Part shown: in pieces, positions 5,237 through 44,700 of the stretch | Layout of the letters: each line of letters starts with the position of its first letter | Numbering within the stretch: position 1 is the stretch's first letter | NCBI GenBank assembly: GCA_964187785.1 | Contig: OZ076409.1 | Coordinates: 2,854,001-2,918,000 of the forward strand | Direction of reading: 5' to 3' | Length of the DNA: 64,000 nt | Origin: Amphiscolops sp. MND2022 | Lineage: Eukaryota | The notes under the pieces: model-generated | Told to the model about the DNA's origin: nothing | Databases searched by the model: none | Seen by the model: the letters and a program-made list of their open reading frames with translations, nothing else | Position numbers and translations under genes: made by a program

Positions 5237-8200
5237 CTAGTATCTGTATTCATCAGTGAAGTTGGGGGTGGGGTTAGGTCGAAGATTATATTTCCCTCCT
5301 CTAGGGCTAGAAGTTTCTTCATCATTTCCATTTTCCGATATTCCGGGCACGGTAATATCTACGCCTCCTTTTGAAGCAATTTCCGTATTTTCTAAATCAT
5401 TTGTGACGTCATTTTCATTTTGCGTCCTACTAGGCGATTCGCTCGGAAGGGACGACGCGTCACGGCTGCTGGCCGATCGTGGCCTTACTTCATTCTCGTT
5501 GACGTCATCATCATTCATTCTCTCACTGCTGCGTTCACTTTCGTTTACGCTGCTGCTTTCATTCTCGGTGACGTAATAGTCGATTTCTCCGTTCGCGGCG
5601 TCCTGTGGTAGACGCGTGGCCGTGTGTGGCCAATCATCTGTCTTCGGCTCGAATAGCTCGTACTCAAAGTCTGCCTCCCATGAGATGGTATACAAATCAT
5701 CTTGCGGTATTACTATTTCTTCGTCGGGCTGTAATTTCTTCTCTTCGTATTTGTCCTCTAATGGGGCATTTGGAACAAATTTTTTGAGCCTGATCCGGTG
5801 CAAGATTTGCGTTTTATTCGTATTTAAACGACGCACTATATAATTGTTATTTGGTAGAGTTTTTTGAACGACAAAAGGACCAATCCATCGGAAGTCCCTG
5901 AATGGTATTTTAGATCCTTGGCTATCCGCCTTCGGTTGGAGAACAAAACAGTAGTCTTTCTCCTGTAGCGGAGCCGCTTTGGCCTTGCGGTCGTAGTACT
6001 CTTTGTACTTTAAATACGACTGCATAATATTCTTTTTGGTTTGATCAATGAGGATCTGCGTCCTCTGCTGCAATTCTTCCGCGAATTCAGTCGTCGGTAG
6101 GAAATTTTTGTTAGGATTATTTCCTAATTTGTGATCCAAGACGTTGTAGGGAATTCGTCCATGAAAGACTTTGCTAGGCTCACAACCAATACTAGCGTGA
6201 TAAGTAGTGTTATAGTTAAGCACAGCTAGTGGTAAATATTTGTGCCATTGACGACGGTATTCTCCTGAGGCCATCTTTAGGTTGGTTTTTAAAGAGGCAT
6301 GTGTCCTTTCAAGTTTACCAATAGTTTGCGGATGTTTAGTAGTGGCACACTTCAATGTGATCCCCAGTATTGCAGTAATTTCTTCTAAAATTTTTGATGT
6401 AAATGCGGATCCCTTGTCCGTGATGAGTGTTGTTGGCAAATACGAATGTTTCGTCATGATGTCAATTATCACCTTGGCTACGTTGGTGGCTGTTGCCTCA
6501 ATTAGCGGGTAGGCGAATAAATATCTTGAAAATACATCTATTGCCGTCATCACCGTTTGGTATCCGCCGCTAGTTGGTAAATTTGGCAATAAATCAATTT
6601 GCATGGCATCTTCTGGGCCTAGGTCCCATTCAGGTAAATTCAGTAATTCTGGGGTGATTACTGTGTTGGGGACCCTTTTGTCCTTGGCACATATTTCACA
6701 GCCTTCTACCCATTTTTTGACGTGTTTTGCAATTCCGGGGTAGTAATATTTTTGGCGAATTTCCTGTAGCATCTTGGAAATGCCCGGATGTCTATGTGCC
6801 GTGCCATGTATTGCTTGTAATAATTCGTTGAGCAAATGCTTTGGCAATAAGATTTGATGATATTTGACCTGTCCGGTTTCATCGTAGTACTGCCGCGTCA
6901 CTATCTCGTCTTTGAGGACTATTCGGTCGATGTTGTTCAAGTAATACTTGTACCGAATATCCTGTTGGAGGATTTCTTCAGAGTATTCTTCGTTTTGAAG
7001 TTTTGCCCTCAATTGGAGGAGAGTCGGGTCTTTGGATTGTTCAAGTAGTATCTGATTTGTTCTTCTTAATTTCTGTGTGAAATTAGTGATCTTTTCGACA
7101 GCATTTTCTGATATAGCGTCAATTTGGATTGCTGTCTCAGGGACTATGAGTCCCTTTTTGGATTGTTTTTTCCGTTCCCAAATCTGTTCTTCTGTTTCGT
7201 TGTCCTCTTCAGTGAAGAAAATTTGCTCTTCCTCTGATACGCCGGCTGATTGGACGTTGACCTCGATCGGTCTAGTTTCTACGTCTTCTCTTATCTTCAG
7301 GACCAATTTTTCAGTAGGGTCCATTTCCATTCGGGACAAGTAGTCTGCCGCTGTATTGTTTTTGCCTGGAATGTGAGCTATAATGAAGTTGAATTGAATG
7401 ACAAAATCACAAGCATTCCAGAGAGGCGGTGGAATTATCTTTGTCTGGAAGAACCTTGTGACCGATTTGTTATCTGTGAGGATAATCACGGGTTGAGGTG
7501 TTCCCCAGAAGATATGTCCGAACTCCTTAAATGCATAATATATAGCTAGGAATTCCTTTGCATATATCGACATTTTGAGTTGAGAAGGCGTGAAAGTTTT
7601 GGATCCATATGCAATCGGCGCATAGGACTTTTTAACAGAAGTGTATTTTTGATTTGGGTCATCTTCGGTCAATATGGCGTAACCGGCTGCTGTAAAACTC
7701 GCGTCGGTCATAAGGACCAGTTGTTTGTTCGGCAGAGGTTGTTTCAACGCCAATTGACTACATCGGTCTAAATCGCAGTTGATCTCATTAAATTGTTCAA
7801 CTAGCTCTTGCGTAACTAGTACTTTTTCATCCTTTTTGAGCAATTGGAAGAAGGGAACTAGTTTTTCGGATAGCCTTGGAATATAATTCCTGTAGTAATT
7901 GAGGAAACCAAGGTAGCGTTGTAAGGCCTTCTTGGACTTTGGGAATTTCGTCTTTTCCAAGAAGTTAATGATTCTTTCTTTTTGGGGTTTTACGCCTTCA
8001 GGTGTAATAGTTCTCCCAAGAAAGTCAATTTCAGTAGCGCCGAAATGGCACTTGTGCATGGACAATTTCAATCCTGCTTCTCTGATACATTGGAACGTTG
8101 CTCTTAAGTTGACGATAAGCTGGTTGGCGTCTGTCGCCGCAACACCAATATCGTCCACATATTGAGCACATTGGTCTGCTTTTATAACACGATCCAAGTA

Positions 8201-10345: not shown

Positions 10346-12018
10346 GAGTCCGTTTTACGTGGGTTTGATTGGCTCGAAGATGCAGTTTCGGGGTTAGTTG
10401 ACTTTTTAGACAACTTTTCATCGCCGGAGTTTTCATCGGCTTTATCTTCGGGTCTTGTCCTTTTGGGACGTAAATGTGCTCCAGCCCCTTTCCAGCATCT
10501 TTCAACAGGGTGATTTTTCTTTCCGCAAGTAGGACATTCTGGGTATGTAGGACGTTGGGGCTTTTTGCCATTTTTGTCCTCCAGTTCTTTCTTCTTTTTC
10601 AATTTGGGACAGCTCTTATAAAAGTGGCCTGTGGCTTTACAATAAGAGCATTGTGCGTCCTTATTAGTATTTATGCCATTAGAGAGCAGATTGTTGTTAC
10701 TGGTGGACGCAGAGGCCATTGTGGCGATTGGCAAATCGTCTGACTCTTCTAATGCGTTGAGTTCAAGCTCTCTTTCAAGATGAGCGACGATTTCCTCATA
10801 TGTCCCGTTCTCCAGGCGGGCCATATTGACAGATCGTTTTAATTTTGGAGGCAGTTTTGCATACAATAAGCTGTCAATCATGCTTTTTGCATTCTCACCG
10901 AAAGCTTTTTCTGCCCCCTGGTTCAGTTCTTCTAAGAAATCCGGCAATTTCATGGTATTCGGATCGAAAGTCAGCCGATGCCATTTGTGTTTTGCCGTTG
11001 CTTGGGATTCCGGTTTAACATATTTTCGCCGGAATATGATTAGCACATCCTCGAGTGTTTGACGGTTTATTGAGTTTATGTTTCTGAAAGTCTGCAGGGC
11101 CCCTTTTCTGAGCAATGAGTGAAAATGGTTTATTTTCATTTGCTCTGTCATGGCCGGTTGCATTTTGATCATTGTGTGGAACAAATCTTCAAAGAGTTCG
11201 AATTTCTCACTCTTTCCGTCAAACGTCATAGGCGTTGTTTGAACAGGCCGGATAGTCATCGTTTGTGGTTTGTTTTGCAAATTAACTAGTACATCAGCTA
11301 ATCTATTGAGCGGGTCTTGAGGTGGCTCTGTGACCTCTGGTTCTGGCGCTGGCAGAGTGGTGTCCAAAGAGACATTGTGGTTAGATTGCTGTCTCTCTAG
11401 GTTCGGGATTGAGTGGATTCGTCCAGTGAGAAATTCAGGTATAGGTTGCTGGGCTTCGTTAGCTCCTGTCACCATGTAAGAGCCACGTCCCGTGGTGTCT
11501 CTCAGATCACCTACGGACCGTGAGTCCTTTTTCAATATCTTAGTTCTTAAGCCAGATGAGTCATTCCTATCCTCCTGACTACTAGGGGACGTACTGGCCT
11601 CAGTGTCCCTGTTCCCTGAAGACGACATTGAACTCACAATGTTTTGTATTTCTGGTAACACCTTCTCTGTTATTGCGGTACTGACTGCTCTATTTATTTG
11701 GCTATGTACCATGGCCATCATAGAATCCATTTCTTGAGACAACCTAAGATTAAATTCATTTGAAAAGGTTTCAAAGGATTGTCTTATGTCATATCGACCA
11801 TGAGGCTCATTTCCTTGAATGAAATCTCCAAGATCGTTTCTTGAGTGACTACCAATTCCTATATCACCATGAATGGAAGATTGGTCTATTACATCTGCTA
11901 ACTCTCTTTCCAAAGGATTTTCACTCCCTATCATCACGTCTAAATTATCCATATCGGACAACATGTCCATCTCTTTGGATTTTCTAGCTTTCGCTTTCTG
12001 TCTTCTTGTGGAAGGCAT
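10336..12018 (-). CDS. gag: Element A gag (560 aa); first 181 codons lie inside the 5' LTR
   Basis: Capsid-like FDGKSEKFELFEDLF...LLRKGAL; knuckles CSYCKATGHFYKSC and CPTCGKKNHPVERC; homologous to element C gag. Confidence 0.93.
   Translation of the reverse strand: MPSTRRQKAKARKSKEMDMLSDMDNLDVMIGSENPLERELADVIDQSSIHGDIGIGSHSRNDLGDFIQGNEPHGRYDIRQSFETFSNEFNLRLSQEMDSMMAMVHSQINRAVSTAITEKVLPEIQNIVSSMSSSGNRDTEASTSPSSQEDRNDSSGLRTKILKKDSRSVGDLRDTTGRGSYMVTGANEAQQPIPEFLTGRIHSIPNLERQQSNHNVSLDTTLPAPEPEVTEPPQDPLNRLADVLVNLQNKPQTMTIRPVQTTPMTFDGKSEKFELFEDLFHTMIKMQPAMTEQMKINHFHSLLRKGALQTFRNINSINRQTLEDVLIIFRRKYVKPESQATAKHKWHRLTFDPNTMKLPDFLEELNQGAEKAFGENAKSMIDSLLYAKLPPKLKRSVNMARLENGTYEEIVAHLERELELNALEESDDLPIATMASASTSNNNLLSNGINTNKDAQCSYCKATGHFYKSCPKLKKKKELEDKNGKKPQRPTYPECPTCGKKNHPVERCWKGAGAHLRPKRTRPEDKADENSGDEKLSKKSTNPETASSSQSNPRKTDSKN
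10339..10345 (-). promoter_or_regulatory. -1 ribosomal frameshift heptamer A_AAA_AAC (element A)
   Basis: TCA AAA AAC TAA ends gag; the -1 frame is continuous with pol. Confidence 0.88.
11461..11474 (-). promoter_or_regulatory. Primer-binding site of element A (TGGTGACAGGAGCT, tRNA-Leu-like)
   Basis: Follows ...TTACA directly. The first 12 nt match those after the duplicated LTR of element C. Resembles tRNA-Leu PBS TGGTGTCAGGAGT. Confidence 0.8.
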
Positions 12019-13108
12019 AAGAGTTTATTGCAAGAGGTAAGAATTTAAATTAAGTTCTCAGGCTTGCAAACAGAGTATGTTGAAACGATTTTAACAAATT
12101 TGAGTATTACGGTATCAAGGAAATTGAAAAAGTCCTTGGGACCTAGGGTCCACGGTATATATACTCAGGTTTACATGACTTGCAAAATAATGAGGGTCAC
12201 GTTCTAAAAATAGCCTTCACAACTATCTAAAAATAGCACCTACTATTTATAGCCATGAAGGCGGCATGACGAAAGGGTCACTTCAAAAGGGGTGATTTTA
12301 TTCAAGCGCCTTCAACAATTCCATATATAGAAGGATTGTAGGTCCAAGCATCCCTCAAGGCCTTTCGTATGTAAGGTTAAGCAACATTTCATGCAATTGC
12401 ATTTGATCAACTATAATTTACATGTACCAACTCATTAATCTAAGTATTCATGTAAATTATTAATATCTAGCATCAAATGGTACAAATGGTTCAGTAATCT
12501 TCATCAAAACGAGTATTTATTAGAAACACCAATCATAGCCTTTATTTACCACTGTAAATTGCACTTTACTTCAATTTGGACTCAGTGTCCATTTACCGTA
12601 AATAGGCAGCAAATTACTGCTAGCTGACGGCGCGTGGCCTTTGAGTCCTTTAATTTAGAGTACTGCGCACAGTGAATGAAATGAATGGCGTGTTCTGATT
12701 GGCTAAGAATTTGAACGGACTGCGTGTCCAGCGAGACAGGAAAGGAAACATTTGAACTCGTTTCCTTTGCCTGTACGCCTTGGTGTCCAATTTCTTAGCT
12801 AATACATTTAAACATACATTATTTACATGCATCAATATATCAAAATCAACTTCAAAGTTTTCAAATAACCAAATGGTATTTCCGATTACTAATTTGCACA
12901 AGATTATATATATAAGGCTGTCAAAACTGAAAACAGAATAACAGACATGCCATAAAATATTACAAATTCAGTTTGAAGTTTTTGTCCCGTCATGACAATG
13001 GGACGCATGGTCCTTTCTTCTAATTTATTGTTAGAGTACCTGGGAGGGCGCGAAAACAGCTGTAATTGATGGTGTAAAAGTTCCCATCGCAGGCGGGAGC
13101 CTGCGACA
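11475..13108 (-). repeat. 5' LTR of element A (~1.63 kb; TGTCGCAG...CTTACA)
   Basis: Inner end fixed by the PBS. Outer end inferred from similarity to the element C LTR start (TGTCACAGCCCGCTCCCG). TATA-like TATAAATAG at 12243-12251 and AATAAA at 12024-12029 (minus). TSD cannot be checked. Confidence 0.7.
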
Positions 13109-16466: not shown

Positions 16467-16467
16467 G

Positions 16468-20484: not shown

Positions 20485-20837
20485 GTCTCCAGGAATTATT
20501 ATTTTTTGGCAGCGCCTCGCGTGAAACTAGTCACGTAGTTATAGAATAGAAAAGGAGAAGTTTTATCACGCTCAGGATTCGGCTAGTGCTAGTTGACAAC
20601 TCGGCCAAGTGATTATTAGATTCGTAAGCTTTGACGAAAACTCAAAATTAGATTGTTCAGCAAACAAAATCGTTATTGGCAATAAGCGCAAGCCTCGGAA
20701 CTTTGTCAAGAGATCTTGGCAAAGCAGAAACAATTATTTGCTCAGTAAAAAGCTCTCTAAATCAACTTTTGGATAACGAAGCCTTGATCATAAAAAATCA
20801 TTATCCGTCATTCGATACTCAATATCCGATTGCATAG

Positions 20838-21140: not shown

Positions 21141-21503
21141 AGATAAATAGGCTCGAAACAGTTAAGGAAGTTTTGAAAATAATTGAATTGGAAAGAAATG
21201 GATTTTTGGATCTTGACTTTCATTTTTCATCGGCAATTTTTGGTCTATAGACAAGCGTCCTATTGTCCCATACCGAGCTAAGGCGCTATTACTTTAATGA
21301 TTTGATCTCTCATTTATCATTGTTTGGAAATTTTTTTACTTGTTTCTTATTAGTGTATACCTCTAAGGATTGGTGCTATCAACCGCTTTTCAAAATCATT
21401 TTTACCAAAGCTGAACCCCTCATCATAACGTGTATGTTTCACCCAGATCCCACGAATCAGCCAATGAAAACCATGTTAAGTTTATTCGGGAGAATAAACA
21501 CCC

Positions 21504-21515
21504 AGAAGGAAAGAG
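21504..21515 (+). promoter_or_regulatory. Polypurine tract of element B
   Basis: AGAAGGAAAGAG abutting the 3' LTR TG. Confidence 0.85.
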
Positions 21516-26700: not shown

Positions 26701-29700
26701 GACAAAACCCCGGGCACGAGCAGGTTCGTTAAGCAGTCATCGGAAATGTCACAGCCCGCTCCCGGTCTGGCTTGTGGTTGCCGACGGCTGAAGATAGGGA
26801 GAGGACATGGAAGCAATCTGAGATTCCCCAAATCTTATTTTAACTGGTAACTCTAAAACTTTATCTTTGAAATAAACTGTGACTAGAAATGTGAAAATAA
26901 ATCTAACCCGCGCAAACTTCAACTGGAAATGAAAACAGAGAACAAAATGAACCAAAATGATTTCACGCATTTCCGGTAAGACGTATTTGTCACGTCAAAA
27001 TAGCAACATTCGCCACCTGGAAACTAAATTGAATTACATTCTAAAACAAAGAAAGCATGGTCTAATCCAAATGAAAACGTAGTCAAAATCATCTCCCAAA
27101 AGAACATTAATCAGATCTAAAATAGAAAATACACTGAGATGGCACACCGATTGGTTTAAGCCTTTTTCTTAGAAAGGCAGCTTAATTACTCTTTGAACAG
27201 CAATTAAAGTGGTTTAGGACGTCAATACTGCGCTGAGTAAACAAAGCGGCAAAAGAAATAAGAATACATGTATATTTGTCGTCAGTAGGACGTAGACAAG
27301 TTTGAAGGCATACCAATTGACGTCACTGCCTCGCATACGCGTACCAGCAAATCATTCCAATTATCCGCCTATACTAATAACATTGCTAGGAATCATTCCA
27401 ATTTACCGCCACTGTGACGTCACTGCACCGGCAGCTAGCGAGAGACTCATTTCTAAAATACTCGTCAGCATTGCGTCAGACTAGTCAAAATCTCTATTCT
27501 GCCAAGAAAACTCGTCAACATGACGTTGACAAGTTTATGAAGCTTAAATTCTGCCAAGAAAACTCGTCAACATGACGTTGACAAGTTTATGAGATTGAGC
27601 AAAATGGATGAATTTGCAAGATCAGTTAAGGTTTCATCGCACTAAAGTTGCTATCATGCTAAAAGAAAATGATTGCAGACTATTTCAATTCGTAAAACAA
27701 GTGTAGATGCGGTATTCCCTATAACTTAAAGTACCAACTTAAAGTAGTTTCGACACATATAGGATAATTTAATTCCACGATAATTGATCGTCTCGCAGTT
27801 ATCAACATCGGGGAATTTCCATTACATAAACCATTTTTCCTCTATAGGAGTTCATAGTAAAATAATCAGAAAGTCACAGTTTATGCTTTCAACTAAAGTA
27901 TATTTTGTACTGAAAATGTATTTTCATATACTTCGCATTTTTGTACTCTATGATATTGAACGCTACATTTATGACCAAGGTCATACTGTTCATACTAATT
28001 CAGTTGTTGTTATCCATTAAATGCGTTACGTTGGCGTTGCTATTTAACAAACGTTGCTGTTAATTTCGTAAAACTTGTCGCAGTTGTCACGACTTGACAA
28101 ATTTACTAATGGTGCATTATTTTAATATCATGTTTTTTAATTAAATTTCCAACGAAAAGATGAGTCCGAATTCATAAATTATCGTCTTAGCATCGTTCAA
28201 ATAATCACGCTTCGGAATTAGTCATAGCATTTTGATCAAGCCGAAATTCAAAATCAGGTATTTGTTGTTCACGTCAGCGTCATCACAGCGTCAATTTCCC
28301 GCGAACCAAAGCAGTAAAACAGGGAAGCATTTCCGGTTTGACAGACTGAAGTAATATCTACTTCCTGCTTGGGAGGAAGCAAAAGGACGCCGGGATGAAA
28401 TGAAATGATCATGTTTGATGACTAATGCTAGTTTAAAATTGTCGTGTCTTAAAAATCGACGAAATTTCGACGCAAATTTGGGAACTTCGTGATTTTTTCA
28501 TCGATAAAACAGGAAATGACTAATTGTTCGAGGGAAATTTGGGATTATAGTCGTGATCAAATGATGGTGGGATGGTATAAATATAATAGGATTTGATGAT
28601 TAAGGGACTCAGTCTTTTGCTAGTGCTACAAACTATTTTCGTTCTTCTAACCCTGTTGAAAATCAGAAAGTGAAAATTGAATTCTTCAAGAATAAATCTT
28701 TCTTCAACAATATGTCTACAACACGAAGCCAAAAGAGAAAGAATACCCAGCGAGAAGTTGATGATAACGTAAGTGAAGGTTTTGTATCACCAATAAATAT
28801 GGAGAACTCTTGCCTTTTAGATCAAAACGTAGAATTAGCGGGTCCTTCAAGACCCAAGTCCCCGAGGGTAGAAAATAGCTTCTTGGAAAGCATAAGATCC
28901 TCTCTGAATGAAGAAATAACGTCCGAGATTAGGGCTCTTTTACTCGAGTCTCAAAAGGAAATGTTGAAACTCTTGAGATCTGAAACGAAAGAAAACGCAA
29001 GAGATGAAGCATCAGAAGAGCTAGGAAATGAAACGCGAAACCTCTATACTCCGACGAAAACAGTGCGAATTAATCCTACCCAAAACGAAGATCCTAGTAT
29101 ATTTCGTAACATGGTGACAGGAGTTTTAAACGACTCCACCAATCAACCCAAGAGAGCGAAGGTCCGATCCCAAAGCCAACCTCCATCAAAAGAACGCCCA
29201 ATAGCAGCGCGAACTTTGTTCGCCCCAGACAAAACTAGCGCCACAACATTACCCATGCCAAAAGCTCTAACAGCGTCACTCCCAACTTTTGACGGGAAAT
29301 CCGAAAAACTTGAGCTTTTCGAAGACCTCTTTAGGAACAACATCAAGATGTATCCACACCTTACAGAACTACAGAAGATAAACTACTTCCACTCCCTACT
29401 TAGAGGAGACGCCCTGCAAGCCTTTTGCAACATCGAAGACTCCAAGAAAGACTCACTAGACGACATCATGACGAAATTCAAACGACGATTTGGGGACTAC
29501 CTGTCAATGGCAAAGGCTAGATGTGAATGGGACGCGCTAAAATTTGATCCCTCGACACAAAAACTCCACGAATTTCTGGATGTACTCCAGAAAACCGCAA
29601 AAGAAGCTTTTGGATCAGAAGCGCAACAATTCATAGACAAGGCTATATACGCCAAAGTGCCAGACCATGTCAAGAAAATACTAAATCGCGCATATCTCGA

Positions 29701-32700
29701 AGACAAACCCTACAACGACATAGTACTTCATCTGGAACGGGAAATGCGTCTCAATGGACTAGGAGCACCAGACGAGGTAACGTTAGTACCCCTGAACAAA
29801 ATCGAACTTGCTCAAGCAAAAACTGAGCCTAAACCAGCCGAAAACACCGCTCAGACCACCAAAAAAGGGTACTGCTTTTACTGTAATAAATTCGGACATT
29901 ATAAAGCTGAATGCCGAAAAATGAAAAGGGACAAATGGATGCAAACCCGCAGAAACAACGGGCCGAGCAACCACAGTGCAGGCAAACCACCCAAATGCGA
30001 CACCTGCGGCAAACCACACAAAACAGAAGACTGTTGGAATGGAGCCAATGCTGCCAAGGATCCACGACCCAAGCGCCACAACACACAAGAACGTAAGATG
30101 GACACCTCTGCCACACAACCAATGAACCAACAAGAAGATGAATCAAAAAACTAATTACGCCGCGCCTGCGCTTTGGGGAAACAGTAGACGCGAGGGCGTA
30201 TTCACCAGAAGACCCCTCTACCATATACACAACCGATACAACAACAAGATGCACTGACACTCCAACAGAAAATTGGCTGAGACAACAAGCCATCGCCTCC
30301 ATTAAGAGACCACCACCAGAAAAAGGCCAGGAAACAACATTCCCCCAAGATCAAGATTACAGAAGCTGTCATCAAAATCACACAAACCCATTTTCTCAGC
30401 CAACCACCAACACCAAGGAACTCTCTACTACAACTCAAACAGACAACAATGAAAACGCCCCCGACGACAACCCCACGTCACAAACGACCGAGGAAGTTAC
30501 GCACAAAACCACCATGACATCTGCCTTCCCCATCGCACTCAACTCAATCAAAGAGTACATAACTGAAAGAGACGGAGATACCTACATACCTCTCCACTCA
30601 ACAATAGTCCTCAAGAACAGAAGACGAATGCTTTACTTGCCACTGGAATTTGGAGAACTAACAATGGACGGCCTCGTCGACTCAGGAGCGTTCATCAATG
30701 CCATGTCATGGTCTGATTACAACGCCATTAAAATGAACAGCGATAATTGCGTCATAAAGGAGTACCCACAACCTCCCTTCAAAATTGAATGTGCAAACGC
30801 GCAACTAGAACAACCTATCGCCACAGCCGATATCCAATTCAATATAGGAACATACACGTTCACTGACACCTTTGTCATACTATCAAAGACCTCATTCCCC
30901 ATAATTGGACTGAACTTCATGAGAAATCACCGAGCAGTGATAGATACAGCCAATGGGACCATCACCCTTCCCTCATGTCGAAATGACATTAGCCATGACA
31001 GATGAAAAGAAAAACTGTAACCCCAAACCACTCCAAATCATGGCTGAAGGGAACCAGACACTGCCTCCACAACAAACAACAACCGTAAATGCAATAGTCA
31101 TAACTACAAATGCAATCGACATCACAGGAGCAGTACAACCGCTACCACAGTTTGACGAAACAGCCACCATCATCGTCGCACCAGCACTAGCCACAGCTCA
31201 CAACAAACGAATCAATTTACGAATAGCCAACTTGACAGATTTCCCTCATACCATAGAAAATCACACCAAATTGGCAGAATTGCAAATCTTGCGGCCAGAG
31301 GACACCAAACAGATACAACCCATAGACGTCGCAACGCTAACCACCCTACAAGATCCAGATGACACACATATGTATGTGAATGAGCTTATGAAATCCACAA
31401 ACAATGAACAAAATGACCAAAACCTCTGGTTCCCAACGCCTGAAAACCCAGGGAACGAGGATGAACACACGCCAATACAAAAGCGAATATTAAAAGAAAT
31501 TAGAGAACTCATCAAGAAAGAACAACTCGACCCCACCAAAGATTCAGATTCAAGAAAAGAGTTTCTCGACATGTTCAAATGGGAAGGATCACAAATTGAA
31601 GGCAATGATAAGAAACAATTAGAACAAACAATAGTTGAATACAATGACATCTTTGCACGTCACAGACTCGACATTGGCATCAATAACAGTTTCAAAGTGA
31701 AGCTGACGCCAAAAGACGAACGCCCCATATACACGCAGAGCCTACCAGTACCGATTAACCTCAAAGAAGACCTAACAGTTGAACTGGCCCTCATGCATAG
31801 GTACGGCATAATAACAACACTACCATTTTCGAAATATGCCAGTCCAATTTTCGCACAACGTAAACCAAATGGTAAACTACGTCTACTCGTCGACCTACGA
31901 AAAATCAATGCACTGATATCCGACGACTATATCAACAATAACCACCCAGTCAGTACCCTGTCGGACGCAGCCCAACACTTAGCCGGGAAAAAGCTGTTCT
32001 GTAAATTAGATTGCTCCCAAGCATACCACTGTCTACAAATGGCAGACCAGAGATCAATCGAAATGCTAGCGTTCAACTTCGCAAGCAGAACGTTCGCCTA
32101 CAAACGACTAGCACAAGGACTGAGTAGAGCTTTATCAGCATTCTCTAGTTTCATGAGAGAATATTTAGACAAAGTAACCAAGGCTGATCAGTGCGCGCAA
32201 TACGTAGATAACATCGGAATAGCTGCAAACTCCGTGACGCAACTGATACGGAACATTCGAGCTGTCTTCGAATGCATCAGACAAGCAGGACTCAAACTAT
32301 CCATCGACAAATGCCACTTTGGAGTGACCGAGGTCGAATTCCTTGGAAGAACGATCACCCCACAAGGAATCGCCCCCCAAGACCACAAAATCCAGAAATT
32401 CTTAGCAAACGTACGATTCCCGAAATCAAAGAAACAAGTACAGAGATACATAGGCTTTGTCAACTACTACCGCAACTATATCCCGAGGTTGTCTGAGAAG
32501 CTACTCGGTTTCTACGAACTACTGAAAGCTGACAAACAAATCAAAGTCACAGAAGATCTGTTGGATCACTACAAAGCGATCAACGCAGCGCTAGCGGAAG
32601 CATGTGGACTAGCCCTCAAACAACCAATCACAGGACGACAATACGTCCTAATGACGGATGCTAGTTTTCGTGATTCAGGATACGCGTTAATGATCGAAGA

Positions 32701-35700
32701 AGAAAACGACAAAAAACTCAATTCCAAAAAGAAAACTTTTGCGCCTGTAGCATTTGGATCAAAAGTATTTTCACCAGCACAACTGAAGATGTCAATCTAT
32801 TGCAAAGAATTTCTGGCAATCTACCATGCGTTCCTAGAATACAGCCACATTTTGTGGGAAACAACCCTACCAACTCTCGTAATGACAGACAACAGATCAG
32901 TAACGAGGTTCTTCCAAACAAAAGCGATTCCCCCCACGCTATGGAATGCATGTGACTATGTTGCAGATGAAGAACAACTCTTTTTCCTCCCAGAGGAAAC
33001 GATTGAAACAGAAGAGGAAATCCTCCTACAAAAAGAACAAGCAAGACAAAATGCACGAGACGAGGAGACGACGAAAATAAAGTTGTCAATAAAAGAAACA
33101 ACCCCAATCCCAATAAACAAGGCATCATACACCTTTGGAGCAATCAAAGAAGATGCACGCATTAGAGTTGAACAAGATTCAGATCTAGTTTTCAAAGCAA
33201 TCAAAAGAAAACTGATCTGTGAAGAATACGACAAACACCTCTTACAAACAGATCTGAAAGCCAAACGCCTCTTAGTTCACGAAAATAGACTCATCGTCAA
33301 AGACGGAGTACTAATGCGCAAATACTACGGAGAATGCGGTCAAGTTACAAACAACCAAATATTAATCCCCGAACACCTGATTACAGAACTTCTGAAAGCA
33401 ATCCATGGACAAATGGGAAAACACCCAGGAATCACAAAAATGATCCAAGAATGCCGATCAAAGTACTACTACCCTGGCTTAGCAAAAAGAATCAGACAGT
33501 GGATAATGCAATGCGAAGATTGCATCAAATACAAAAGAATCAACAATAGCCAAATCCGACCGAAGTTGATCAACAACACAGAACACGTATTAGGACCAGA
33601 AGATATACTCGAAATCGACATACTGCCAAACCTACCAAACTCTGCAGGATACCAGAACTTTGTCACAATGATCGATGTATTCTCACGTTACCTATTCGCA
33701 TACCCGACGCAGAATGCCACTGCAAAAACAATCGGACAATGCATCGTCGACGTCATGACCAGACATGCATATCTGCCAACTTTAATTTTGTCAGACAAAG
33801 GCTCACAAATCAGATCAGAAGTCGTCGCAGAAATAACGCAAATCCTTGAAATTCAAATCAGCCATGCGTCCACAAAACATGCACAAACAATCGGAATTTT
33901 GGAAAGGACACACGCCTCAATCAAGACCGCACTCAAAATATCAACGGGTGGAAGACGTTCAATGTGGCACAAATACGTCCAAATCGCAGTCATGAATTAC
34001 AATACGACGTACCACGAAACCTTAGGATGTGAACCATCTACAGTATTCCACGGACGTATACCCTACAATGTTCTTGATTTAAAATTAGGCATCAAGCCAA
34101 AGTGGAAAACAATGCCCAACTCGGACATAGCAGAGCAACTACAAAAGCAAATTGACGAAGTGCGGGCGACAGCGAAAGACAACATCATGCTGTCTTACCT
34201 CAAATACAAAAAATATTACGATCGCAAAGCGTCAGCAGCTCCGCTCAAAGTAAACGACTACTGCTATATCCTCAACCCAAAAGCCGACAACCAGTCGACA
34301 AAGTTTGCGTTTCAAGATTGCATCTGGACAGGACCGTATATTGTGATAAAAATACTATCCAACAACAACTATACAATACGAAGACTTGGCACACGATACA
34401 CACAAACATTACATAGGATCAGAGTACGCCCTTACGTGCCAGAGCAACGACTGCCTGACGTCACAGTACGTACAAATGACTACCTTCCTGATCCGAACGT
34501 CAAAGTGTCACACAATGAGTGGTACGCGGTATCGTGGGAAATGGATTTCGGAAAACAGATTGACGAACACGAAACATTAAAAAGTACAGAAAACAATCGA
34601 CACACAGAAATACAAGAAATGACAAATACGAACGACGAAGACACGACGTCTCAAATGCCAAGGAACCAAACTGATGACACAAATGACGAGGCGCCGCCGT
34701 CTCCGGATTTTTCAAATCTTACTACAGACGTGGGGGATAAACCATACATACGACGCCCCCCACCCATTGAAAGTCCACCTATTCCCCCAAGATCACCGCC
34801 TACAACTATCGGATATAACCCGAGAAAAACAGCAAAGTATAACCTGAGACCTAATCCTAAGCCTAATGCAAATCCTGAGTTTCGACGACTTGACGCTATA
34901 ACTACAACTTACTAAATGAAAAGACAGTATCAGTAGTCCAAACCGAACCGGTCTGACGATTTTCAATTGTAGGCATACTACGGCCTGAACGAATATTTTT
35001 TTCTCTACCTTTTTCTTTTCAACTGCAGCATTTGGAATATCATCCACGCCAGAATAATACAAAGATACAAAAGAAAGCAACAATTAATACAATCTACATT
35101 ACAACGTCACAACAAAGCAAGAGTACTACAATAAACATGGAAACTGTCTTAAAATAAAAGTCACTATTTCTTCGAGCTAGATTCACCACTTTTACTGGCA
35201 GACCTTTTGGACTTCTTCTTGACCACCTTCACAGGCTCCGGTACGACTTCGAAACCACCACGAGAAGCATCTTTCTTTCGCCCAAGCAAAGACGCCAGGC
35301 TACTGTGAACACGCGTCTTACTCCGCCTAAATGAACTGGTATCACTTGAACTAAGCATAGGAGGGAGAGACGCAGCTGACGCAACACTATCTGACAATAC
35401 ATTTTCATCGCCACCAGAACGCAAACCTGGGTTCAAAACATCAGGAGCGCAGGTCTGTTGTGAAACCTCACCCCTTTTCCGGTCGACCCGAGTTTTAAAA
35501 AGACCAGTATAACGCTTCACAAAAGCAGCCTGACCTTCACTGCAAATGCCAGTCCAGGGCATTTGTCATAAAAGACTGCGAAGCATCAATTGCATCACGA
35601 ACTTCTTTCATTGTAAACTTGGTAAAAAATGAACTCAGTTTAAAATCAGAAGCAGAAACACAACTTTGCACACCACTAAAACAGGAAGCTATCACCCACT

Positions 35701-38700
35701 CGGACACTTGACAGTTTGTCAGACCAAGATCCACAGAAGGGTAATCAACACGAGGTTTCAGCGCCACCAAACAACATAACTTGAAGACACGAACTAAACT
35801 CTTGCGGGACAAGAAACTGTAATCTGATAACAAGTATTGCTGAGCATCAACAATGTCCTCTGCACTGGCCCCACAATCCTCATGCCGCCTCCGCGCATCC
35901 ACAACAAAGGTCGAATACTCCTCAACAGCCGTCCTCGACTCGGAAGACGACAAACAACCACTTGACTCCAGGACCCGAATCAACTTGCTAAACAGACCCA
36001 ACATGTGACGGTCATCTCCTTCTAATAATAATTCTGGACAAAACGCATAAAGTCCTTGAGAAAACTCCCCAGTCACAGGTTGTTGACCCAGAATAGCGTC
36101 CACCAGCCGGTCCATGAATTTTCGACACTGCTCGCGGAAAGTTCGCCCACTCCCGTCATTACGACCATGTAAAGTCGACCCGAACGAATGGTTTCGCAGA
36201 AAATCGTCAGGAGAAATAGAATCGAACTCGTCCACCTTCTCCGCATCCATATACTCCTCCCAATTGTGCAAGCCTGGGAATGAACTGATTTTCCGGGTAC
36301 GCGACAACAGGCAGTAGACAAACTGGCACACTTCCATGTAGAAATGAAAACAGTAGTCCATGCGTTTGGACAGCAGCTTCTTGAAGGAACAACGATCTAA
36401 ACATAAAACATTACCACCATATATATGAAGTCAACATACCCAAAATCCCAACCTGACAGAACCCATCCAATAAATAGCGAAAGCACAACAACTTACAAAG
36501 CTCCAGGATGTGTAGAAGAAGACCCAATCGTAGCTCACCCACACCATCAGAGTACACAGCCCAGTCAGTGCCTCGCATCTGCAAAAATCAAATATTCCCA
36601 CTAACGTTACCAACACCACACGGGGAAAATAGAGAAAAGAACACAATCAACATGAGAAAAACAACTAAATAGCCAAATACATCGATACTACGAACAATGG
36701 GATATAACTTACCCGGCCAGCCTCAGTTTTGATATGACGCGGTGCACTATCTCTGATGAATTTCCGCACTAAAGTCCACACAGAGAGCAAATCCTTGACG
36801 ACATCACATAGGTCAAAAAAGAGCACTCGTCCAGCAATCACACTCCGTCGCAGTATTGGCAAATCGTCGAACCACGATTCTTGTAGGGCACCACGCAAAC
36901 GCAAAACCAGGAAATCAATCATGGTGGTCACTTCCAAACCACCAAACACCTCCTGATAAGCCTTCTGTACGTCTGTACGAAACACTTATGAGTCCTCTCA
37001 TCCTCGACAAAGAACACACTGTACTCACGAAACGCAGAAATCCGCGAAATGAGCAACCGCAATGCCCGAGGGAAAAGCGCACGGCAAATTATTGAGTAAA
37101 ACACAAACCAAAAATTACATCCCGAAATGCCGAAAGTTACTCCCTATGACTTCTAGCAGACATCAACACAAAACAACCATATACAAATCAAAAGCAGAAA
37201 ATAGAACAGGAAAATTAAGACTCACCAAGGATTCAGCAAGGCTCCAATTCAAACTGTAGAGGGGATTCTCTCGGCCCAAAGTCGCTCGAAAACTCCCCCA
37301 AAGACGCCGCAAGAGAGTATAGCTTCCACCCGACCGCAGCAACTCAACCAGACAATTGATCATCGTCATCAATGGGACACTCGAATTAGCTTGAGTGCAT
37401 GCTGGCAACAGATCTTCCGGGAAGCTGAACCCCTCACTTTTTCCTTTGCGAGGCCGATCACGATACTCCGACAGTTGAGCCTCAGTCAACACCATCGGGT
37501 CCATCAATCTGTTGAAAACTGGCATGTCGTTCTGCACACGATAGCTCACGTCCAAAACCCAGTGTCGTTTACCGAAAAAGTGGCGAGCAAATTCAGCAGG
37601 GCCTCGTGACTCCATCGATACGTCTCGCTGACATATCATACAGTGGAACAACTTATCAGATCCAGTACTTGACCCACTGACGAAGAGCTCAAACACGGGG
37701 TGCCCCGAAACCATGTCGCGTCGCAACCGATTACGAGGACTGTAGGCTCGTTTTCGCCCTCGAGTGGCCCCCTTCAAAGTCGACTCCTTTCTCTGTATCA
37801 ACTCCTCGAATTCTATAATGGACAAAATGCAATTTCAATACAAGACAACAACAAATAAACAATACAACATAGAACCTCCATATGGAGAACAATCATCAAA
37901 AAACAAAAAAAAACAAAAAACAAAAAAAAGAGAGAAAGGAAAACAAACAAAAAGGAGGAGGAAACGATATCACCACAAAGGAAGAGAAACAATGCGGTAC
38001 GAATAACCATCAAACCATACTTACTAGCTACAAATGGATCCATGGCATGTCTCTCAGTGTCTGACTCGACAACCGGTCGCTGCCCTGGAATCAGTGATAG
38101 AATTTTACTGGTAGTAGGTTCAGCGACTTCTTCATCTCCACTGCTGCGCACATCGAACTGAACATGCCTACCACTGCTTTGTGACGTACCCGGACGAAGT
38201 TGCAGCAACTTTCCACACTGCCCAAGTGACTTTTCTTTTTCGGGAGCGGCCAGTAAAGCTAATATACAATAGCAAGCAATATTAAGCAGCACAATCAAAC
38301 CGACTATGGGAAATTAACTTACATAAATCAACAACCAAAACCAACAGTCAACTCACTCACCACGTTTGGAAGCAGGAGAACTGACTCGACTGCCGAATGA
38401 CTGACTGGAACCAGGCAAGAAATCACTGAACCGTGGAGAAGACGTCTTTGCAGCAACATCATCTCCTGGCGTTGTTTCTATTTGCTTGCTACTTCCTTGA
38501 AGAGGGGGGGACAGAATCTCACCTCCGCGAGTCTCTGAAGCCACGGAAGAACGAATCTGCTGTGCGAGAGCTCCCAAAGTCATGTCCAAATCGTCAGACT
38601 GACAAACAACAGAGTCACTAATGACAGAACCAACTCCACCAACAGAAACCCGAGTAGGACCACCTGGGAGAGAGGTTTCCAGAGTAGAGGCGAGAACACC

Positions 38701-41700
38701 ACCAGCAGGGGACGGAATAGATGGCCCAGAAACTGAAATTAAATTCCCGTATTGACGCGTCAGAAAATCTAAGCTGTGAAAATACGAAACAGAAAAGGCC
38801 TATCTGAGAGTAGTATTATTCATAAAAGCTTAATGGTCCGGGGAATGACAAACCCACCTGTTGCCAGCCGACGAACAATATCGCCATCACTCTGGTAGAT
38901 GTCTCCCTCAGAGAACACGAATTGAGTTTCATTGCCGCTCTGAGCGCCGGTGTCACGACAGGACGGAGGAGGTTCCTGATCCATCTCAAAATAGCAGAAA
39001 TCTGGAAAAAAGAGGATATGAAAACAACAATCAAAACTGACGTCACCATAACGGCGACAAAAATGAAAGTTGGCTAATCACCAACGAAATTGACATCGGC
39101 ATAACGTCGACAAAAAGGTTATCAGGGTTAAGAAATTAATCCTATATCCTAAAATGACGTCATCAAAACGGTGACAAAATCAAAAGTTAGCTAAGCTAAC
39201 GAAAATGACGTCATCAAAACGGTGACAAAATCAAAAGTTAGCTAAGCTAACGAAAATGACGTCAGCATAACGTTGACAAATTTGGCCAAGTAAATTATTT
39301 CAATTTACAGCCAATAAAATGCGATGTCGACATAACGTCAACATCTGAAGATTAAAAAGGATTAAAATATTTGAACAGCCAATCAGAATGGAGAGAATTT
39401 TCCAATTTTCTCCTTAACCCAAATTAAAGCAGGAGATCATTGTGGAACAATTAAATACAAACGACAGCTGCAAAAGAAAAGAAACCTCACAAAGAAGATG
39501 AATAATTTACTAGACATTTACGAGTTGATCGACATTTCATCGTCAAGCGAAGAAGAAGGCGAGATCACAAGAGCTTCTACCCCGTTACCGAGGGCCAACA
39601 AAGAGTACCCCAGAATAATTGTCGAAATACTGAACTCGTCAGCGGAAGCTACTGCAGATGAAGAAGAATTCCTCGACCTTTCTCTAGACTCCCTGGAATC
39701 TGAATGCAAAAGAATGAAACTCAGTGAACCCTACACGAGCTTCGAAACAGTGGAATCGGGTCAGTACCCTCAGTCGGAAAGCCCCGAAGAAATAGTAATG
39801 GCCGCCTCCCCAGAGAGCCCAGATGAAAGCTTGTCATCTGACATATTTGTTGTCGAAACATCGGCAAATGATAAGGAGTCGATAACGAGCAGTAAAGTAG
39901 CAGAATATCTCGGAAAAGTACACCAGGAAGACGCTTCTTCTTACTTCAGCACCCCGACGAGAACGCCAAAAAAGATCAATCTTTTGCAGGCAAGCCCTTT
40001 GAATGACTTGGAGAGGAGAGTACAGACGAACACCACTACTCCAACAATCGCCTCACTGCTCAGAGCCCCGGGCAGCGTCAATCTTCTTACAAGAGCGGCC
40101 CTGTCACAGCCCGTTCCCGGTCTGGCTTGTGGTTGCCGACGGCTGAAGATAGGGAGAGGACATGGAAGCAATCTGAGATTCCCCAAATCTTTCTTTAACT
40201 GGTAACTCTAAAACTTTATCTTTGAAATAAACTGTGACTAGAAATGTGAAAAAACATCTAAACCGCGCAAACTTCAACTGGAAATGAAAACAGAGAACAA
40301 AATGAACCAAAATGATTTCACGCATTTCCGGTTAGACGTATTTGTCACGTCAAAATAGCAACATTCGCCACCTGGAAACTAAATTGAATTACATTCTAAA
40401 ACAAAGAAAGCATGGTCTAATCCAAATGAAAACGTAGTCAAAATCATCTCCCAAAAGAACATTAATCAGATCTAAAATAGAAAATACACTGAGATGGCAC
40501 ACCGATTGGTTTAAGCCTTTTTCTTAGAAAGGCAGCTTAATTACTCTTTGAACAGCAATTAAAGTGGTTTAGGACGTCAATACTGCGCTGAGTAAACAAA
40601 GCGGCAAAAGAAATAAGAATACATGTATATTTGTCGTCAGTAGGACGTAGACAAGTTTGAAGGCATACCAATTGACGTCACTGCCTCGCATACGCGTACC
40701 AGCAAATCATTCCAATTATCCGCCTATACTAATAACATTGCTAGGAATCATTCCGCCACTGTGACGTCACTGCACCGGCAGCTAGCGAGAGACTCATTTC
40801 TAAAATACTCGTCAGCATTGCGTCAGACTAGTCAAAATCTCTATTCTGCCAAGAAAACTCGTCAACATGACGTTGACAAGTTTATGAATCTTAAATTCTG
40901 CCAAGAAAACTCGTCAACATGACGTTGACAAGTTTATGAGATTGAGCAAAATGGATGAATTTGCAAGATCAGTTAAGGTTTCATCGCACTAAAGTTGCTA
41001 TCATGCTAAAAGAAAATGATTGCAGACTATTTCAATTCGTACAACAAGTGTAGATGCGGTATTCCCTATAACTTAAAGTACCAACTTAAAGTAGTTTCGA
41101 CACATATAGGATAGTTTAATTCCACGATAATTGATCGTCTCGCAGTTATCAACATCGGGGAATTTCCATTACATAAACCATTTTTCCTCTATAGGAGTTC
41201 ATAGTAAAATAATCAGAAAGTCACAGTTTATGCTTTCAACTAAAGTATATTTTGTACTGAAAATGTATTTTCATATACTTCGCATTTTTGTACTCTATGA
41301 TATTGAACGCTACATTTATGACCAAGGTCATACCGTTCATACTAATTCAGTTGTTGTTATCCATTAAATGCGTTACGTTGGCATTGCAATTTAACAAACG
41401 TTGCTGTTAATTTCGTAAAACTTGTCGCAGTTGTCACGACTTGACCAATTTACTAATGGTGCATTATTTTAATATCATGTTTTTTAATTCCATTTCCAAG
41501 GGACTCAGTCTTTTGCTAGTGCTACAACTCAGTTGTTCCAAACTTGCTATTCTCAAACTATTTTCGTTCTTCTAACCCTGTTGAAAATCAGAAAGTGAAA
41601 ATTGAATTCTTCAAGAATAAATCTTTCTTCAACAATATGTCTACAACACGAAGCCAAAAGAGAAAGAATACCCAGCGAGAAGTTGATGATAACGTAAGTG

Positions 41701-44700
41701 AAGGTTTTGTATCACCAATAAATATGGAGAACTCTTGCCTTTTAGATCAAAACGTAGAATTAGCGGGTCCTTCAAGACCCAAGTCCCCGAGGGTAGAAAA
41801 TAGCTTCTTGGAACGCATAAGATCCTCTCTGAAGGAAGAAATAACGTCCGAGATTAGGGCTCTTTTACTCGAGTCTCAAAAGGAAATGTTGAAACTCTTG
41901 GGATCTGAAACGAAAGAAAACGCAAGAGATGAAGCATCAGAAGAGCTAGGAAATGAAACGCGAAACCTCTATACTCCGACGAAAACAGTGCGAATTAATC
42001 CTACCCAAAACGAAGATCCTAGTATAATTCGTAACAGGAAACTCTGGGTTCAGCACAGAAAAATACAAGATTCGGCGGGCAAACCGTGGTTTGGCACGTT
42101 TTCAGCTATTGTATACCGTCTGTTTTCTCGGCTGTCTCGCGGGGCGGCTTTTTTGACCTTTGCTCTGCAATTTTCTGGCAGGTACTTCGTCAAAAGCATG
42201 CTCAGGATGCCACGTCAGATTTGAACGAAGTTTTCAGAAATTGTCAAAATTTCGTTTGGTTACAGGAGGCCGTTACAATGAACAGCTGAACGGAGGAATA
42301 AAACAGCTCAGGAATATCACCTATTCAATTTTAAAAACAGATTTTTTTCCAACTTCCGTCAATAAAAGATCAAATTTTAAGAATCAAATCCACACCAATA
42401 AATTATTTATAACTTTCACATGGAAGGTTATCCAAGTATGCACTTTTTCGTAAACGTTGATCTATATGATTTGTGTAGTAAGCTTTTCAAGGAACTGTGA
42501 ATAATATGCATCGAAAGTCTTCTGTTTTTACTCGGCACTTTCTGTAAAAACAGACGTGCCCGACTAGTCAGTAGATTAGTTTTACTTCAATTTAATATTT
42601 TTCGTAACAGCACAGAATCTTTGCGAATGTTCCATTTTTCAACGCCGAATATGTTCACGCCGACTGTAGTTAGGATGGTCGCTTCCCGTCGGCTCCCGAC
42701 TTAAGTGGTCTTTATGTGTCAAAGGTCCTCCTTTGGGTTTTTTCAACACTGAGTGACTTTTTTCTCTCTCAATTTTTTGTGAGAACTTTTTGTTTTGTAT
42801 CAAGAATTAATTAACAGCAGACTTTTAGAACGATATTTTTTTGGGCCTGAAGATTCAATCATTGAAATGTATTTATGATGGTTTGCTCATTGAGCTAGAA
42901 AATTTTTTAAAGAAGCATAGAGATATAGCCTTAACTGAAACGTGGCTGACAGAAAATGACTCCATTAACGAATCAACTCGACCTCTTGAGTCGAAACCCC
43001 GGACCTCAGGCATACTTTTTTTTGTTCAGGAATATGTTTCGTACAAGCCCTTGATTTTTGAAACAAAAATACAATGTCCTATAATAGAGGTGGACTTCGT
43101 TAACAACCAAAGATTGTACTTTTGTGTCGTATATGGACCTCAGAGTCACGAGCGAAAAGACTTTTTGCCGCCGTTTGAAAAAGTATTGCATTTTTGAGAA
43201 GCCGAAAACATGATACTGTTATATTTGGAAACTTCAATACTGATACACTTGTAGACTCTAAATCCAGGAGTGATTATGAAAAAGTACTGTATGCAGTTGA
43301 TTTTAAACAGCAAAACTTTCAGCCAAAAGGGTTACCGCAACAGCATCCACTGGTTTGGATATTTTTATCACAGGATTCCAAACGCAAACAATGACAATTC
43401 CCACAACAATTAGTGATCATTTCAGTGTTCTAGGTGAGATACTTCTATCAACAGTTGGAATAAAACAAAAAGCCTCTTTTCGAAAAACAAAAGACCTTCG
43501 TGGCTTTGAAGGGGAAATTGCACTGAAGTTTCTTTTTTCGTTAGATCAAAAAAGTAAGCAGTACCTAATTCGGAGGGAAAGACCCTACGGAGAAAATCAC
43601 CTGATCGGTATTTGAATGTGTTGATCGCTTCGCACCAGAAAATTTATCAATTCACAAAACAATGGAACTGACTGGGTTACAAACAAAGTTAAAAATGCTG
43701 TGACGAAACGCGATAAACTTTTCCACAATTGGGTTTTGGATCCCAGTGATTTTAAGAGGAAAACATATAAAAAAGCGCAATTTAGTCACTTCAGTCATAC
43801 GAAACGCAAAAAAGGCAGCCAATTTCCACAAACGTGGAAAAAATCATCTACCAAGACGATGAATAGAACTTTAAAATGCCAAACACGAAGTAATCAACCA
43901 CATAACTTGAAAATAGAAATTGATGAATTGGACAAGTTTTTTACATATAGGTAATTAACTCTCCTGCCAAGTACCAAAACCACATCATACCATTGATCTC
44001 CCATGTTTTGGTAAGACAATGGTTTTGAATGATACTAGTCCCGATGCTGCACAAATTATTTTAAAATATGAAAATAAAAGTTTTGAATCTGATGACATCA
44101 GAACTGAAATTCACAAATGCTGCTCACCAGAGGTAGAAGAACATCTCTCTAAAGCATTCAATGAATGCCTCAAGATTGGAATTTTTTCATAATGCCTTAA
44201 CATTGCAAAGGTTAAATATATATATATATATATATACACTCTTGATCTTTGCATCTGATTAAATAGACTTTTTTCTTTATTTCTTTTTTGTAAATTCCGA
44301 TGACATGTTTTTCCCATATTTGGGGTTTACGGAATCGTATTTTTCGAAAAAAAATTGGGTATGTTTTGATATTCTTGGAAGCATTTTTGGAGAAAAGCGT
44401 TGTTGAAGGTCACAGGTCCCCTCTTCTAATTTTTTGGCCACTCTGAAGGTTACGAACTTTTCCTTAAAGTCACCCTGCGCGTTTCTATGTGACTTTGACC
44501 TTTTAGAGCTTTGATTGTAGTGGGGCGCCGACTTTAGACTGTCCCATCTTGTTACAATACGGCCTTTTTCCAGATTTCATGTTCTTTTACTATGATCCTC
44601 TTGTGGCAATGTTTAGTTTAGGTTTTGCTGAAACCCCAACTTTATTGCAAATCAGGTAAAAAGTGTTGCTACCTGTGCGACAAGGGTAAGCTCTTCCGAA

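Follow-up and report, generated by a model that had tools for sequence, protein, structure and literature searches.

A probable spliced antisense accessory gene, under purifying selection and exchanged as a cassette, in Ty3/gypsy retrotransposons of Amphiscolops sp. MND2022

Ty3/gypsy long terminal repeat (LTR) retrotransposons of plants and of one fungus can carry an additional open reading frame (ORF) between pol and the 3' LTR, antisense to gag-pol. In the available excerpt of a review (PMC7264820), such ORFs are described for maize Grande (gene23), rice RIRE2, Silene Retand, Phaseolus PvRetro13 and Botrytis Boty (brtn), with function unknown; they occur in most copies of their families and lack similarity to known proteins, and for Grande an own promoter and a nuclear gene23 product have been reported. 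Antisense extra ORFs of Ty3/gypsy elements are also mentioned in the available excerpt of PMC8220671. Here we analysed a stretch of 64,000 nucleotides from Amphiscolops sp. MND2022 (GCA_964187785.1, contig OZ076409.1, positions 2,854,001 to 2,918,000 of the forward strand; hereafter the window), in which two Gypsy elements, A on the minus strand and C on the plus strand, carry homologous genes in the same place and orientation as these ORFs. We consider it very probable that they represent an old, spliced antisense accessory gene of a Gypsy clade, kept by selection and exchanged between elements as a cassette.

The gene lies antisense to gag-pol, in the interval between pol and the 3' LTR and in most family copies, which are the features that define antisense ORFs in the excerpt of PMC7264820, and it likewise has no similarity to known proteins. 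The likeness to the plant and fungal ORFs is one of layout, and the present gene differs from them in its animal host, in at least 4-5 exons with positions conserved across proteins that are 21% identical, in its length of 850-1230 aa, in its zinc finger and in its behaviour as a swapped cassette. The text of that review lacks the words 'intron' and 'animal', and its excerpt names no animal case; in the literature covered, which leaves out most subscription journals and so gives a weak sign of absence, we found no intron-bearing antisense gene in an animal LTR retrotransposon. A further analogy, again of layout only, is HBZ of human T-cell leukemia virus type 1, which has an antisense promoter in the 3' LTR (PMC7264820, available excerpt). 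Whereas the HBZ promoter sits in the LTR, the promoter of the present gene is likely internal, with another ORF between it and the LTR. Located on the minus strand at the 3' proviral end, HBZ has a spliced form and is a small bZIP protein with one intron; Pfam searches of the exons studied here gave no bZIP family.

In element A the predicted gene consists of five exons, assigned by sequence reading and alignment, with donors after 2791, 3347, 3552 and 3744 and acceptors before 2862, 3418, 3663 and 3903:

971..2791, plus strand: exon 1, 607 codons, from ATG 971 (context AAATGG), with the zinc finger at ~2324-2410
2862..3347, plus strand: exon 2, 486 nt
3418..3552, plus strand: exon 3, 135 nt
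3663..3744, plus strand: 82-nt exon
3903..5059, plus strand: last exon including the stop

The corresponding parts in element C, with donors after 37226, 36713 and 36497 and acceptors before 36578 and 36396, are as follows:

38858..38984, minus strand: putative first coding exon, from a conserved ATG (MDQEPPPS...) to a conserved donor ACAG/GT in phase 1 (9-row C-group alignment)
37813..38799, minus strand: probable upstream coding pieces, open frames 38353-38799 and 37813-38313, with equivalent frames kept in L031, L033, L035 and L037
37226..37834, minus strand: zinc-finger exon (FHCMICQ...RHFFGKRH) with a basic cluster upstream and donor GTGAGT in phase 0 (sequence reading, alignment)
36713..37095, minus strand: remnant of exon 2/3, 383 nt (alignment), with acceptor AC in this copy
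36497..36578, minus strand: 82-nt exon (MRGTDWAVYSDGVGELRL...), acceptor TTTGCAG, donor GTAAGT
35540..36396, minus strand: last exon (exon 5 equivalent) up to a premature stop, phase-1 acceptor TGTTTAG/AT, homologous to A 3903-5056
35164..35565, minus strand: tail of the last exon, out of frame here; 11 nt that the 8 other C-group rows all have are missing

A preliminary description of this DNA had proposed that the two genes are homologous and that their proteins, though highly diverged, can be aligned. Both are antisense to gag-pol and occupy the interval from pol to the 3' LTR, and alignment of the proteins spliced in silico was significant: with intact C-type sister copies, a single high-scoring segment pair (HSP) of 761-807 columns at 21-22% identity was obtained in 4/4 A-versus-C comparisons (E 2.1e-35 to 4.4e-28). 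When the A and C regions of the window itself were compared by tblastx, HSPs antisense to gag-pol followed one another in colinear order (sum E 1.7e-12); they include the zinc finger, VFGTVD/VFGGLE and the beginning of the last exon.

The exon-intron structure is conserved as well. The protein alignment places three introns at shared positions with equal phases (0, 0, 1), together with the 82-nt exon; the earlier pairs of junctions, 2791/37226 and 3552/36713, proved exact, and the first intron falls six codons past the W in both genes, MAFFT shifting it by one column via a gap. The extra intron of element A (3348-3417) is real and has no counterpart in any C-type copy, and exons 2 and 3 of A (486+135 nt) together measure 621 nt, as does the undivided C-type exon in 6/9 C-group rows. 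Across gene models aligned for the window copies and 16 further genome copies, the 82-nt length is kept in 15/18 rows, GT is present at 31/32 donors and AG at 32/32 acceptors in the A group (8 rows), and the corresponding counts in the C group (9 rows) are 24/25 and 23/25. Intron lengths drift between 68 and 189 nt, in contrast to the exons, which keep to 82 nt and 621 nt, and splicing in silico restores a single reading frame that runs from the finger exon through to the stop in 10/18 rows. As far as tested, each detail of the structure given in the preliminary description was borne out. By our own arithmetic, the chance that three introns fall on three of four given sites in ~1900 coding positions is roughly 1e-8 or less.

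Two C-type copies, L033 and L034, have lost exactly the last intron and kept the frame. Precise intron loss usually results from recombination with reverse-transcribed spliced mRNA, and these copies are therefore evidence, if indirect, for splicing of the antisense transcript in vivo. The 442-aa frame of L033 is common to 18 scored C-type rows, which is compatible with a subfamily trait but does not prove one. As a separate case, the 735-aa open frame of L038 was considered as an intron-less form and rejected, both introns being present in the alignment; intron 3, the 82-nt exon, intron 4 and 2 nt add up to 345 nt (125+82+136+2), a multiple of three that is stop-free by chance.

The window copy in element C is itself a decayed pseudogene copy and no evidence of a working gene. 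Its intron 1 acceptor reads AC in place of AG, its exon 2/3 measures 383 nt versus 620-621 nt in sister copies (238 nt missing), and the 11-nt deletion puts the last exon out of frame and splits it into pieces of 297 and 133 aa, where most close sister copies have an open frame of 429 aa. Because this copy is broken, the argument from conservation rests on the family.

We further surveyed the family in the 1.07-Gb host genome, where first-look candidates numbered 7548 with the A-type query and 7283 with the C-type query. Most scored copies keep open frames, in identity classes from 100% down to ~58%, and the last-exon frame of element A recurs at 12 further genome sites at 100% identity. The ratio of nonsynonymous to synonymous divergence (dN/dS) was 0.05-0.24 in all 14 estimates with finite dS, and intron divergence follows synonymous divergence (e.g., introns 0.098 versus a proportion of synonymous differences of 0.114-0.154). 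The antisense gene is thus under purifying selection. Beyond this genome, a last-exon profile searched against 1.84 billion cluster representatives (50% identity) matched 1084 clusters at E<=0.001, 181 of them at E<=1e-30; 19/19 clusters looked up for a name were unnamed ENA entries. The host genome also encodes nuclear-receptor ligand-binding domains (10 matches, best E 6e-21), which are a hallmark of animals.

These data bear on two alternatives. One is that the similarity and the GT/AG pairs are coincidences of A-rich antisense sequence, a view to which the broken C copy and the short tblastx segments that are all A and C have in common within the window might seem to lend some colour. It is refuted by the protein alignment, the intron positions and dN/dS, and with E values down to 2e-35 against intact sisters, thousands of copies, 1084 clusters and a selection signal we regard it as hardly credible. 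The other is that the antisense RNA, and not a protein, regulates the element through double-stranded or small RNAs, the frames being incidental. Non-coding antisense retroelement transcripts are known, for example from micropia (PMC7264820, available excerpt), but a dN/dS this low at saturated synonymous sites, exon lengths that keep the frame next to introns of variable length, invariant finger ligands and confidently predicted folded domains all speak for a protein and make this explanation very unlikely.

The gene had also been described as an old, vertically inherited module, and this holds in part: the module is old and shared and is no chance insertion, but strictly vertical co-inheritance with the reverse transcriptase (RT) is not supported. 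When the pol and gene trees were compared within this one genome, the A/C split received 100% support in both, and the trees conflicted inside each clade. Approximately unbiased (AU) tests rejected a shared pol/gene topology within clades, with p from 4e-8 to 8e-37 for groups named after the trees had been seen. Sliding-window comparisons locate the conflict. L035 and L032 are 93-97% identical in both flanks and 54-71% in the gene; the window copy of A (WA) and L028 are 94% identical upstream and 90-97% in pol, falling to 51-73% across the gene; and WA and L024 display the reverse pattern, with flanks at 48-82% and the gene at 87-96%. Judged by tree branch lengths, pol and gene diverge about equally in close pairs, so that the pattern reflects exchange and not a faster clock. 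The gene is a variable cassette moved between related elements by recombination at both ends, and many anciently diverged versions of it sit in otherwise near-identical backbones.

Incongruent trees combined with patchy presence would have pointed to independent recent insertions; incongruence was found within clades, and patchy presence was not. The gene adjoins pol in 16/16 loci picked by the gene. Among copies picked by integrase alone (92-98% like that of C), 54/104 are followed directly, on the opposite strand, by a scored match to the gene at 60-100% identity, a lower bound with 132/7283 candidates scored. In addition, 3/3 further copies picked by pol without a scored match still carry the gene, at 46-56% identity to the sampled C-types, and the integrase of these three gene-divergent copies is 95-97% like that of C. 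Presence is thus not patchy, and the incongruence does not point to independent captures. That A and C had separately gained a host gene or fragment, as in retroviral transduction, could be proposed from the within-clade conflict of pol and gene trees and from known transduction by LTR elements (PMC7264820, available excerpt). We consider this highly improbable, given that the two genes share place, orientation and three intron positions with their phases, that the gene is in every copy examined and never away from pol in the loci examined, that the conflict is one of block exchange between elements all carrying the gene, and that transduced genes occur in one or few copies (PMC7264820, available excerpt).

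One locus, L030 (G000:C2:45683216-45693215), combines an intact last exon, 59% identical to that of A, with a pol that is intact over at least 1501 aa. The sequence preceding its last exon does not align with other A-group genes, and the locus holds either a truncated gene or one with a very different 5' part.

With respect to the protein, the zinc finger has the form CX2CX16HX5H, a BED-like spacing; its ligands C, C, H and H are invariant in 9/9 aligned sequences, and a basic cluster precedes it. AlphaFold models the last exon as all helical over residues 11-230 (block-mean predicted local distance difference test, pLDDT, of 65-95, mostly >85), followed by a disordered tail with pLDDT <50 in the C-terminal 150 residues. 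For this fold we found no relative with Foldseek (best E 0.42) or VIA-align (best Z 5.6, to the helical cat allergen Fel d 1), and in the ESM Atlas the best score was 0.80, to EF-hand or unnamed clusters, below a meaningful level. The model thus suggests a ~220-residue all-helical domain without a known relative, and possibly a new fold. Exon 2/3, modelled from intact copies, is predicted to form a helix, three strands, a helix, a strand and a helix (pLDDT 75-85 over residues ~10-110). About half of the rows listed by Foldseek for it are integrases, RuvC-type nucleases, Hermes, sugar kinases and Argonaute (E 0.02-0.14), all of them proteins with an RNase H-like fold, and the model weakly resembles that fold; exon 2/3 had no usable match in the ESM Atlas.

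Several observations weigh against the gene being what we propose. The structural scores for exon 2/3 (VIA-align Z 5-6.4; Foldseek E at least 0.02) lie in the range that the tool calls uninformative and may stem from no more than a common arrangement, and strand 1 of this module has no acidic residue conserved between A and C in the alignment; because of the latter, a catalytic role is unsupported. Pfam returned only C2H2-type finger matches below the cut-off over all exons (best ZN292-like, E 0.0012), and PDB sequence profiles gave 0 hits for the last exon and exon 2/3 and, for the finger exon, two hits at the level of chance (E about 1). No longer, fused or annotated spliced forms appeared among 8000 scored candidates. 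The aligned loci were chosen via the gene itself, and the AU-test groups after the event. Polyadenylation signals follow the stop within 420 nt in 6/9 A-group rows and 0/9 C-group rows. For the 5' exons of the C gene, ORF logic cannot decide the limits because 90 alternative splice paths fit all five loci tested. Splicing, start site and translation of the antisense gene we infer from the DNA. On sequence evidence, by comparison, the conserved exon-intron structure, the strong selection and the cassette-like exchange can be considered firm.

The predicted domains also raise the question of origin. A zinc-finger and RNase H-fold DNA transposon of hAT type may have landed antisense in an ancestral Gypsy element and been kept in non-catalytic form, which would be compatible with an old, selected accessory gene. 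The order of finger, linker, beta-beta-beta-alpha-beta-alpha module and long helical region recalls that of hAT transposases such as Hermes and their domesticated derivatives, which have a CX2C...HX5H finger. The structural matches are weak: Hermes occurs three times in the Foldseek list (E 0.041-0.11, ~207 columns) and once in VIA-align (Z 5.4, 164 residues, root-mean-square deviation 12, model residues 1-197 to chain residues 148-344). Its root-mean-square deviation of 12-13 A and the uninformative range of these scores, the lack of a conserved acidic residue on strand 1 and the absence of a PDB profile match argue the other way, as does Pfam, where at E up to 10 neither zf-BED nor hAT dimerisation nor any related family was matched; in 26 last-exon sequences no hAT dimerisation domain was found at E up to 1. 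Unlike hAT elements, to which it has no sequence match, the antisense gene sits in an LTR retrotransposon. We regard transposase descent as unlikely, though not far-fetched.

We then placed the gene within its elements, which belong to one large Ty3/gypsy LTR retrotransposon clade. In Pfam searches both pols have the Ty3/gypsy domain order of protease, RT, RNase H and integrase, and both gags match DUF1759; A and C are 49% identical in pol (1403 aa), 37% in gag (338 aa) and 21-22% in the accessory protein. In A, the pol domains lie at residues 214-307 (protease), 618-783 (RVT_1), 854-973 (RT_RNaseH), 1171-1226 (Integrase_H2C2) and 1247-1342 (rve). The pol alignment has a gap at the RNase H/integrase junction. 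Pol of the window element C is shorter than that of sister copies, measuring 1323 aa where they have open frames up to 1697 aa. The LTRs of element A are 100% identical, its 3' LTR lying just upstream of the window. Element C is bounded, as first described, by both LTRs (26747-29111 and 40102-42036, 98.3-98.6% identical by blastn), which have TG..CA ends by sequence reading, and by a 5-bp target site duplication (TSD), GGAAA. The framework of the two elements is as follows:

5237..12024, minus strand: element A pol (5237-10354) and gag (10336-12024) (Pfam; open frames)
26742..26746, no strand: TSD GGAAA on the 5' side of element C, with the identical 5 bases at 42037-42041
26747..29111, plus strand: element C 5' LTR (blastn against the 3' LTR; ends read)
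28604..30154, plus strand: element C gag open frame, stop to stop, starting inside the LTR (Pfam DUF1759, E 3.9e-8)
30142..34915, plus strand: element C protease/pol in frames 30142-31005 and 30944-34915 (RVT_1, RT_RNaseH, Integrase_H2C2, rve)
39038..39264, no strand: four TGACGTCA octamers, three within 51-nt tandem units, between the antisense gene and ORF-X; candidate divergent promoter (conserved in the C-group alignment)
39375..40205, plus strand: sense-strand ORF-X, 276 aa, entering the 3' LTR by ~100 nt, with the motif IDISSSSEEEGE (kept open in C-group rows)
40102..42036, plus strand: element C 3' LTR (blastn against the 5' LTR; ends read)

Two side observations concern these parts. 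A 464-bp segment (28153-28616) of the C 5' LTR is lacking in the 3' LTR; since integration, either the former has gained it or the latter has lost it. A borderline dUTPase match falls between protease and RT in A pol (residues 345-427; 23.0 bits, cut-off 22, E 7.5e-5), with no such Pfam match in C pol.

ORF-X, located past the antisense gene towards the 3' LTR, is the fourth conserved open frame of the element. It is open over 258-276 aa in 7/9 C-group rows (158 aa in L034, 191 aa in L037), has a counterpart of 297 aa in element A outside the window on the minus strand (~-1079 to -189, L039; IYISSDEEE, LGRGNG), and is far more uniform from copy to copy than the neighbouring antisense gene. Its acidic-serine motif (IDISSSSEEEGE / IYISSDEEE) is, we presume, reminiscent of SUMO-interaction motifs.

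The interval between the antisense gene and ORF-X probably contains an internal divergent promoter, to judge from conserved motifs named after consensus sequences; the TGACGTCA octamers are candidate cAMP response element (CRE) sites. In element A, a block at 860-970 (plus strand), upstream of ATG 971, is conserved across A-group subfamilies whose coding sequence is ~62% identical; it holds CCAAT (907) and the palindrome CTTCCGGAAG (946), and could be a core promoter or, in a longer 5' model that begins at ATG 770, an intron. The palindromic octamer TGACGTCA occurs 16 times in the window versus ~1 expected by our own arithmetic, including both C LTRs (27318, 27415, 40673, 40762), both LTRs of the 14-22 kb element described below (14611, 21732) and the 3' end of A pol (5404, 5500).

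We propose the following course for the accessory gene. With at least three introns, it would already have been present before the A and C lineages diverged, antisense and tail to tail with pol, upstream of a further sense ORF and the 3' LTR. The introns would persist through retrotransposition because they are antisense to the reverse-transcribed genomic RNA and so invisible to its splicing, surviving each round; this is established retroelement logic and agrees with the data. Transcription of the gene would start at an internal promoter of its own, within the short stretch where it stands head to head with the sense ORF, and the spliced product would encode a protein of ~850 aa (C type) or ~1230 aa (A type). 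Its predicted order is a disordered Ser/Gly/Glu-rich N-terminus, the basic cluster and finger, the beta-beta-beta-alpha-beta-alpha module and the all-helical domain. Purifying selection acting through the element's own replication keeps the gene, and the protein presumably serves the element's spread, because a selected gene is here carried only by the element.

As to function, we tentatively suggest, with limited confidence, a nuclear nucleic-acid-binding regulator, possibly of transposase descent, that acts in trans and either drives transcription of the element or blunts host silencing. The diversity of the cassette suggests that the gene may be the element's conflict or specificity interface. 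A stronger form of this idea, which we find doubtful, is a hypervariable specificity or conflict module whose versions, saturated at synonymous sites, persist side by side and are shuffled between near-identical gag-pol/LTR backbones, the protein being a domesticated, catalytically dead transposase-like nucleic-acid binder and the introns being kept not only for want of a way to lose them but also to aid expression of the antisense mRNA from a silenced element otherwise poor in introns.

Other repeats in the window lie outside this clade or outside the elements discussed. A third Gypsy element of another lineage (58665-64000, plus strand, and L040) has a Retrotrans_gag match and, in pol, a Macro-domain match that stays below threshold (21.3 bits, cut-off 22); its pol extends to ~65470 in extended coordinates and is followed by long sense open frames of up to 701 aa, with no antisense open frame of at least 120 aa after pol. 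At 14395-22576, an LTR pair (~14395-15938 and 21516-22576; 93-97% identical) surrounds plus-strand frames of 191, 142 and 411 aa without a Pfam match. A tandem array at 56946-57385 consists of an 88-bp unit in about five copies at 98% identity and then decays.

Together, these findings extend the antisense-ORF phenomenon known from plants and one fungus to an animal, in the form of a large multi-exon gene under purifying selection in thousands of copies. The conserved introns, with one gain or loss and one precise loss, imply that the gene has been spliced repeatedly, and the arrangement would be nature's equivalent of the antisense introns built into retrotransposition reporters. The cassette pattern points to a part of a retrotransposon under long-term diversifying pressure and may offer a route to the study of element-host or element-element conflict. 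If the gene is indeed a conflict module, this pattern would be the one expected from frequency-dependent conflict with host silencing or with competing elements.

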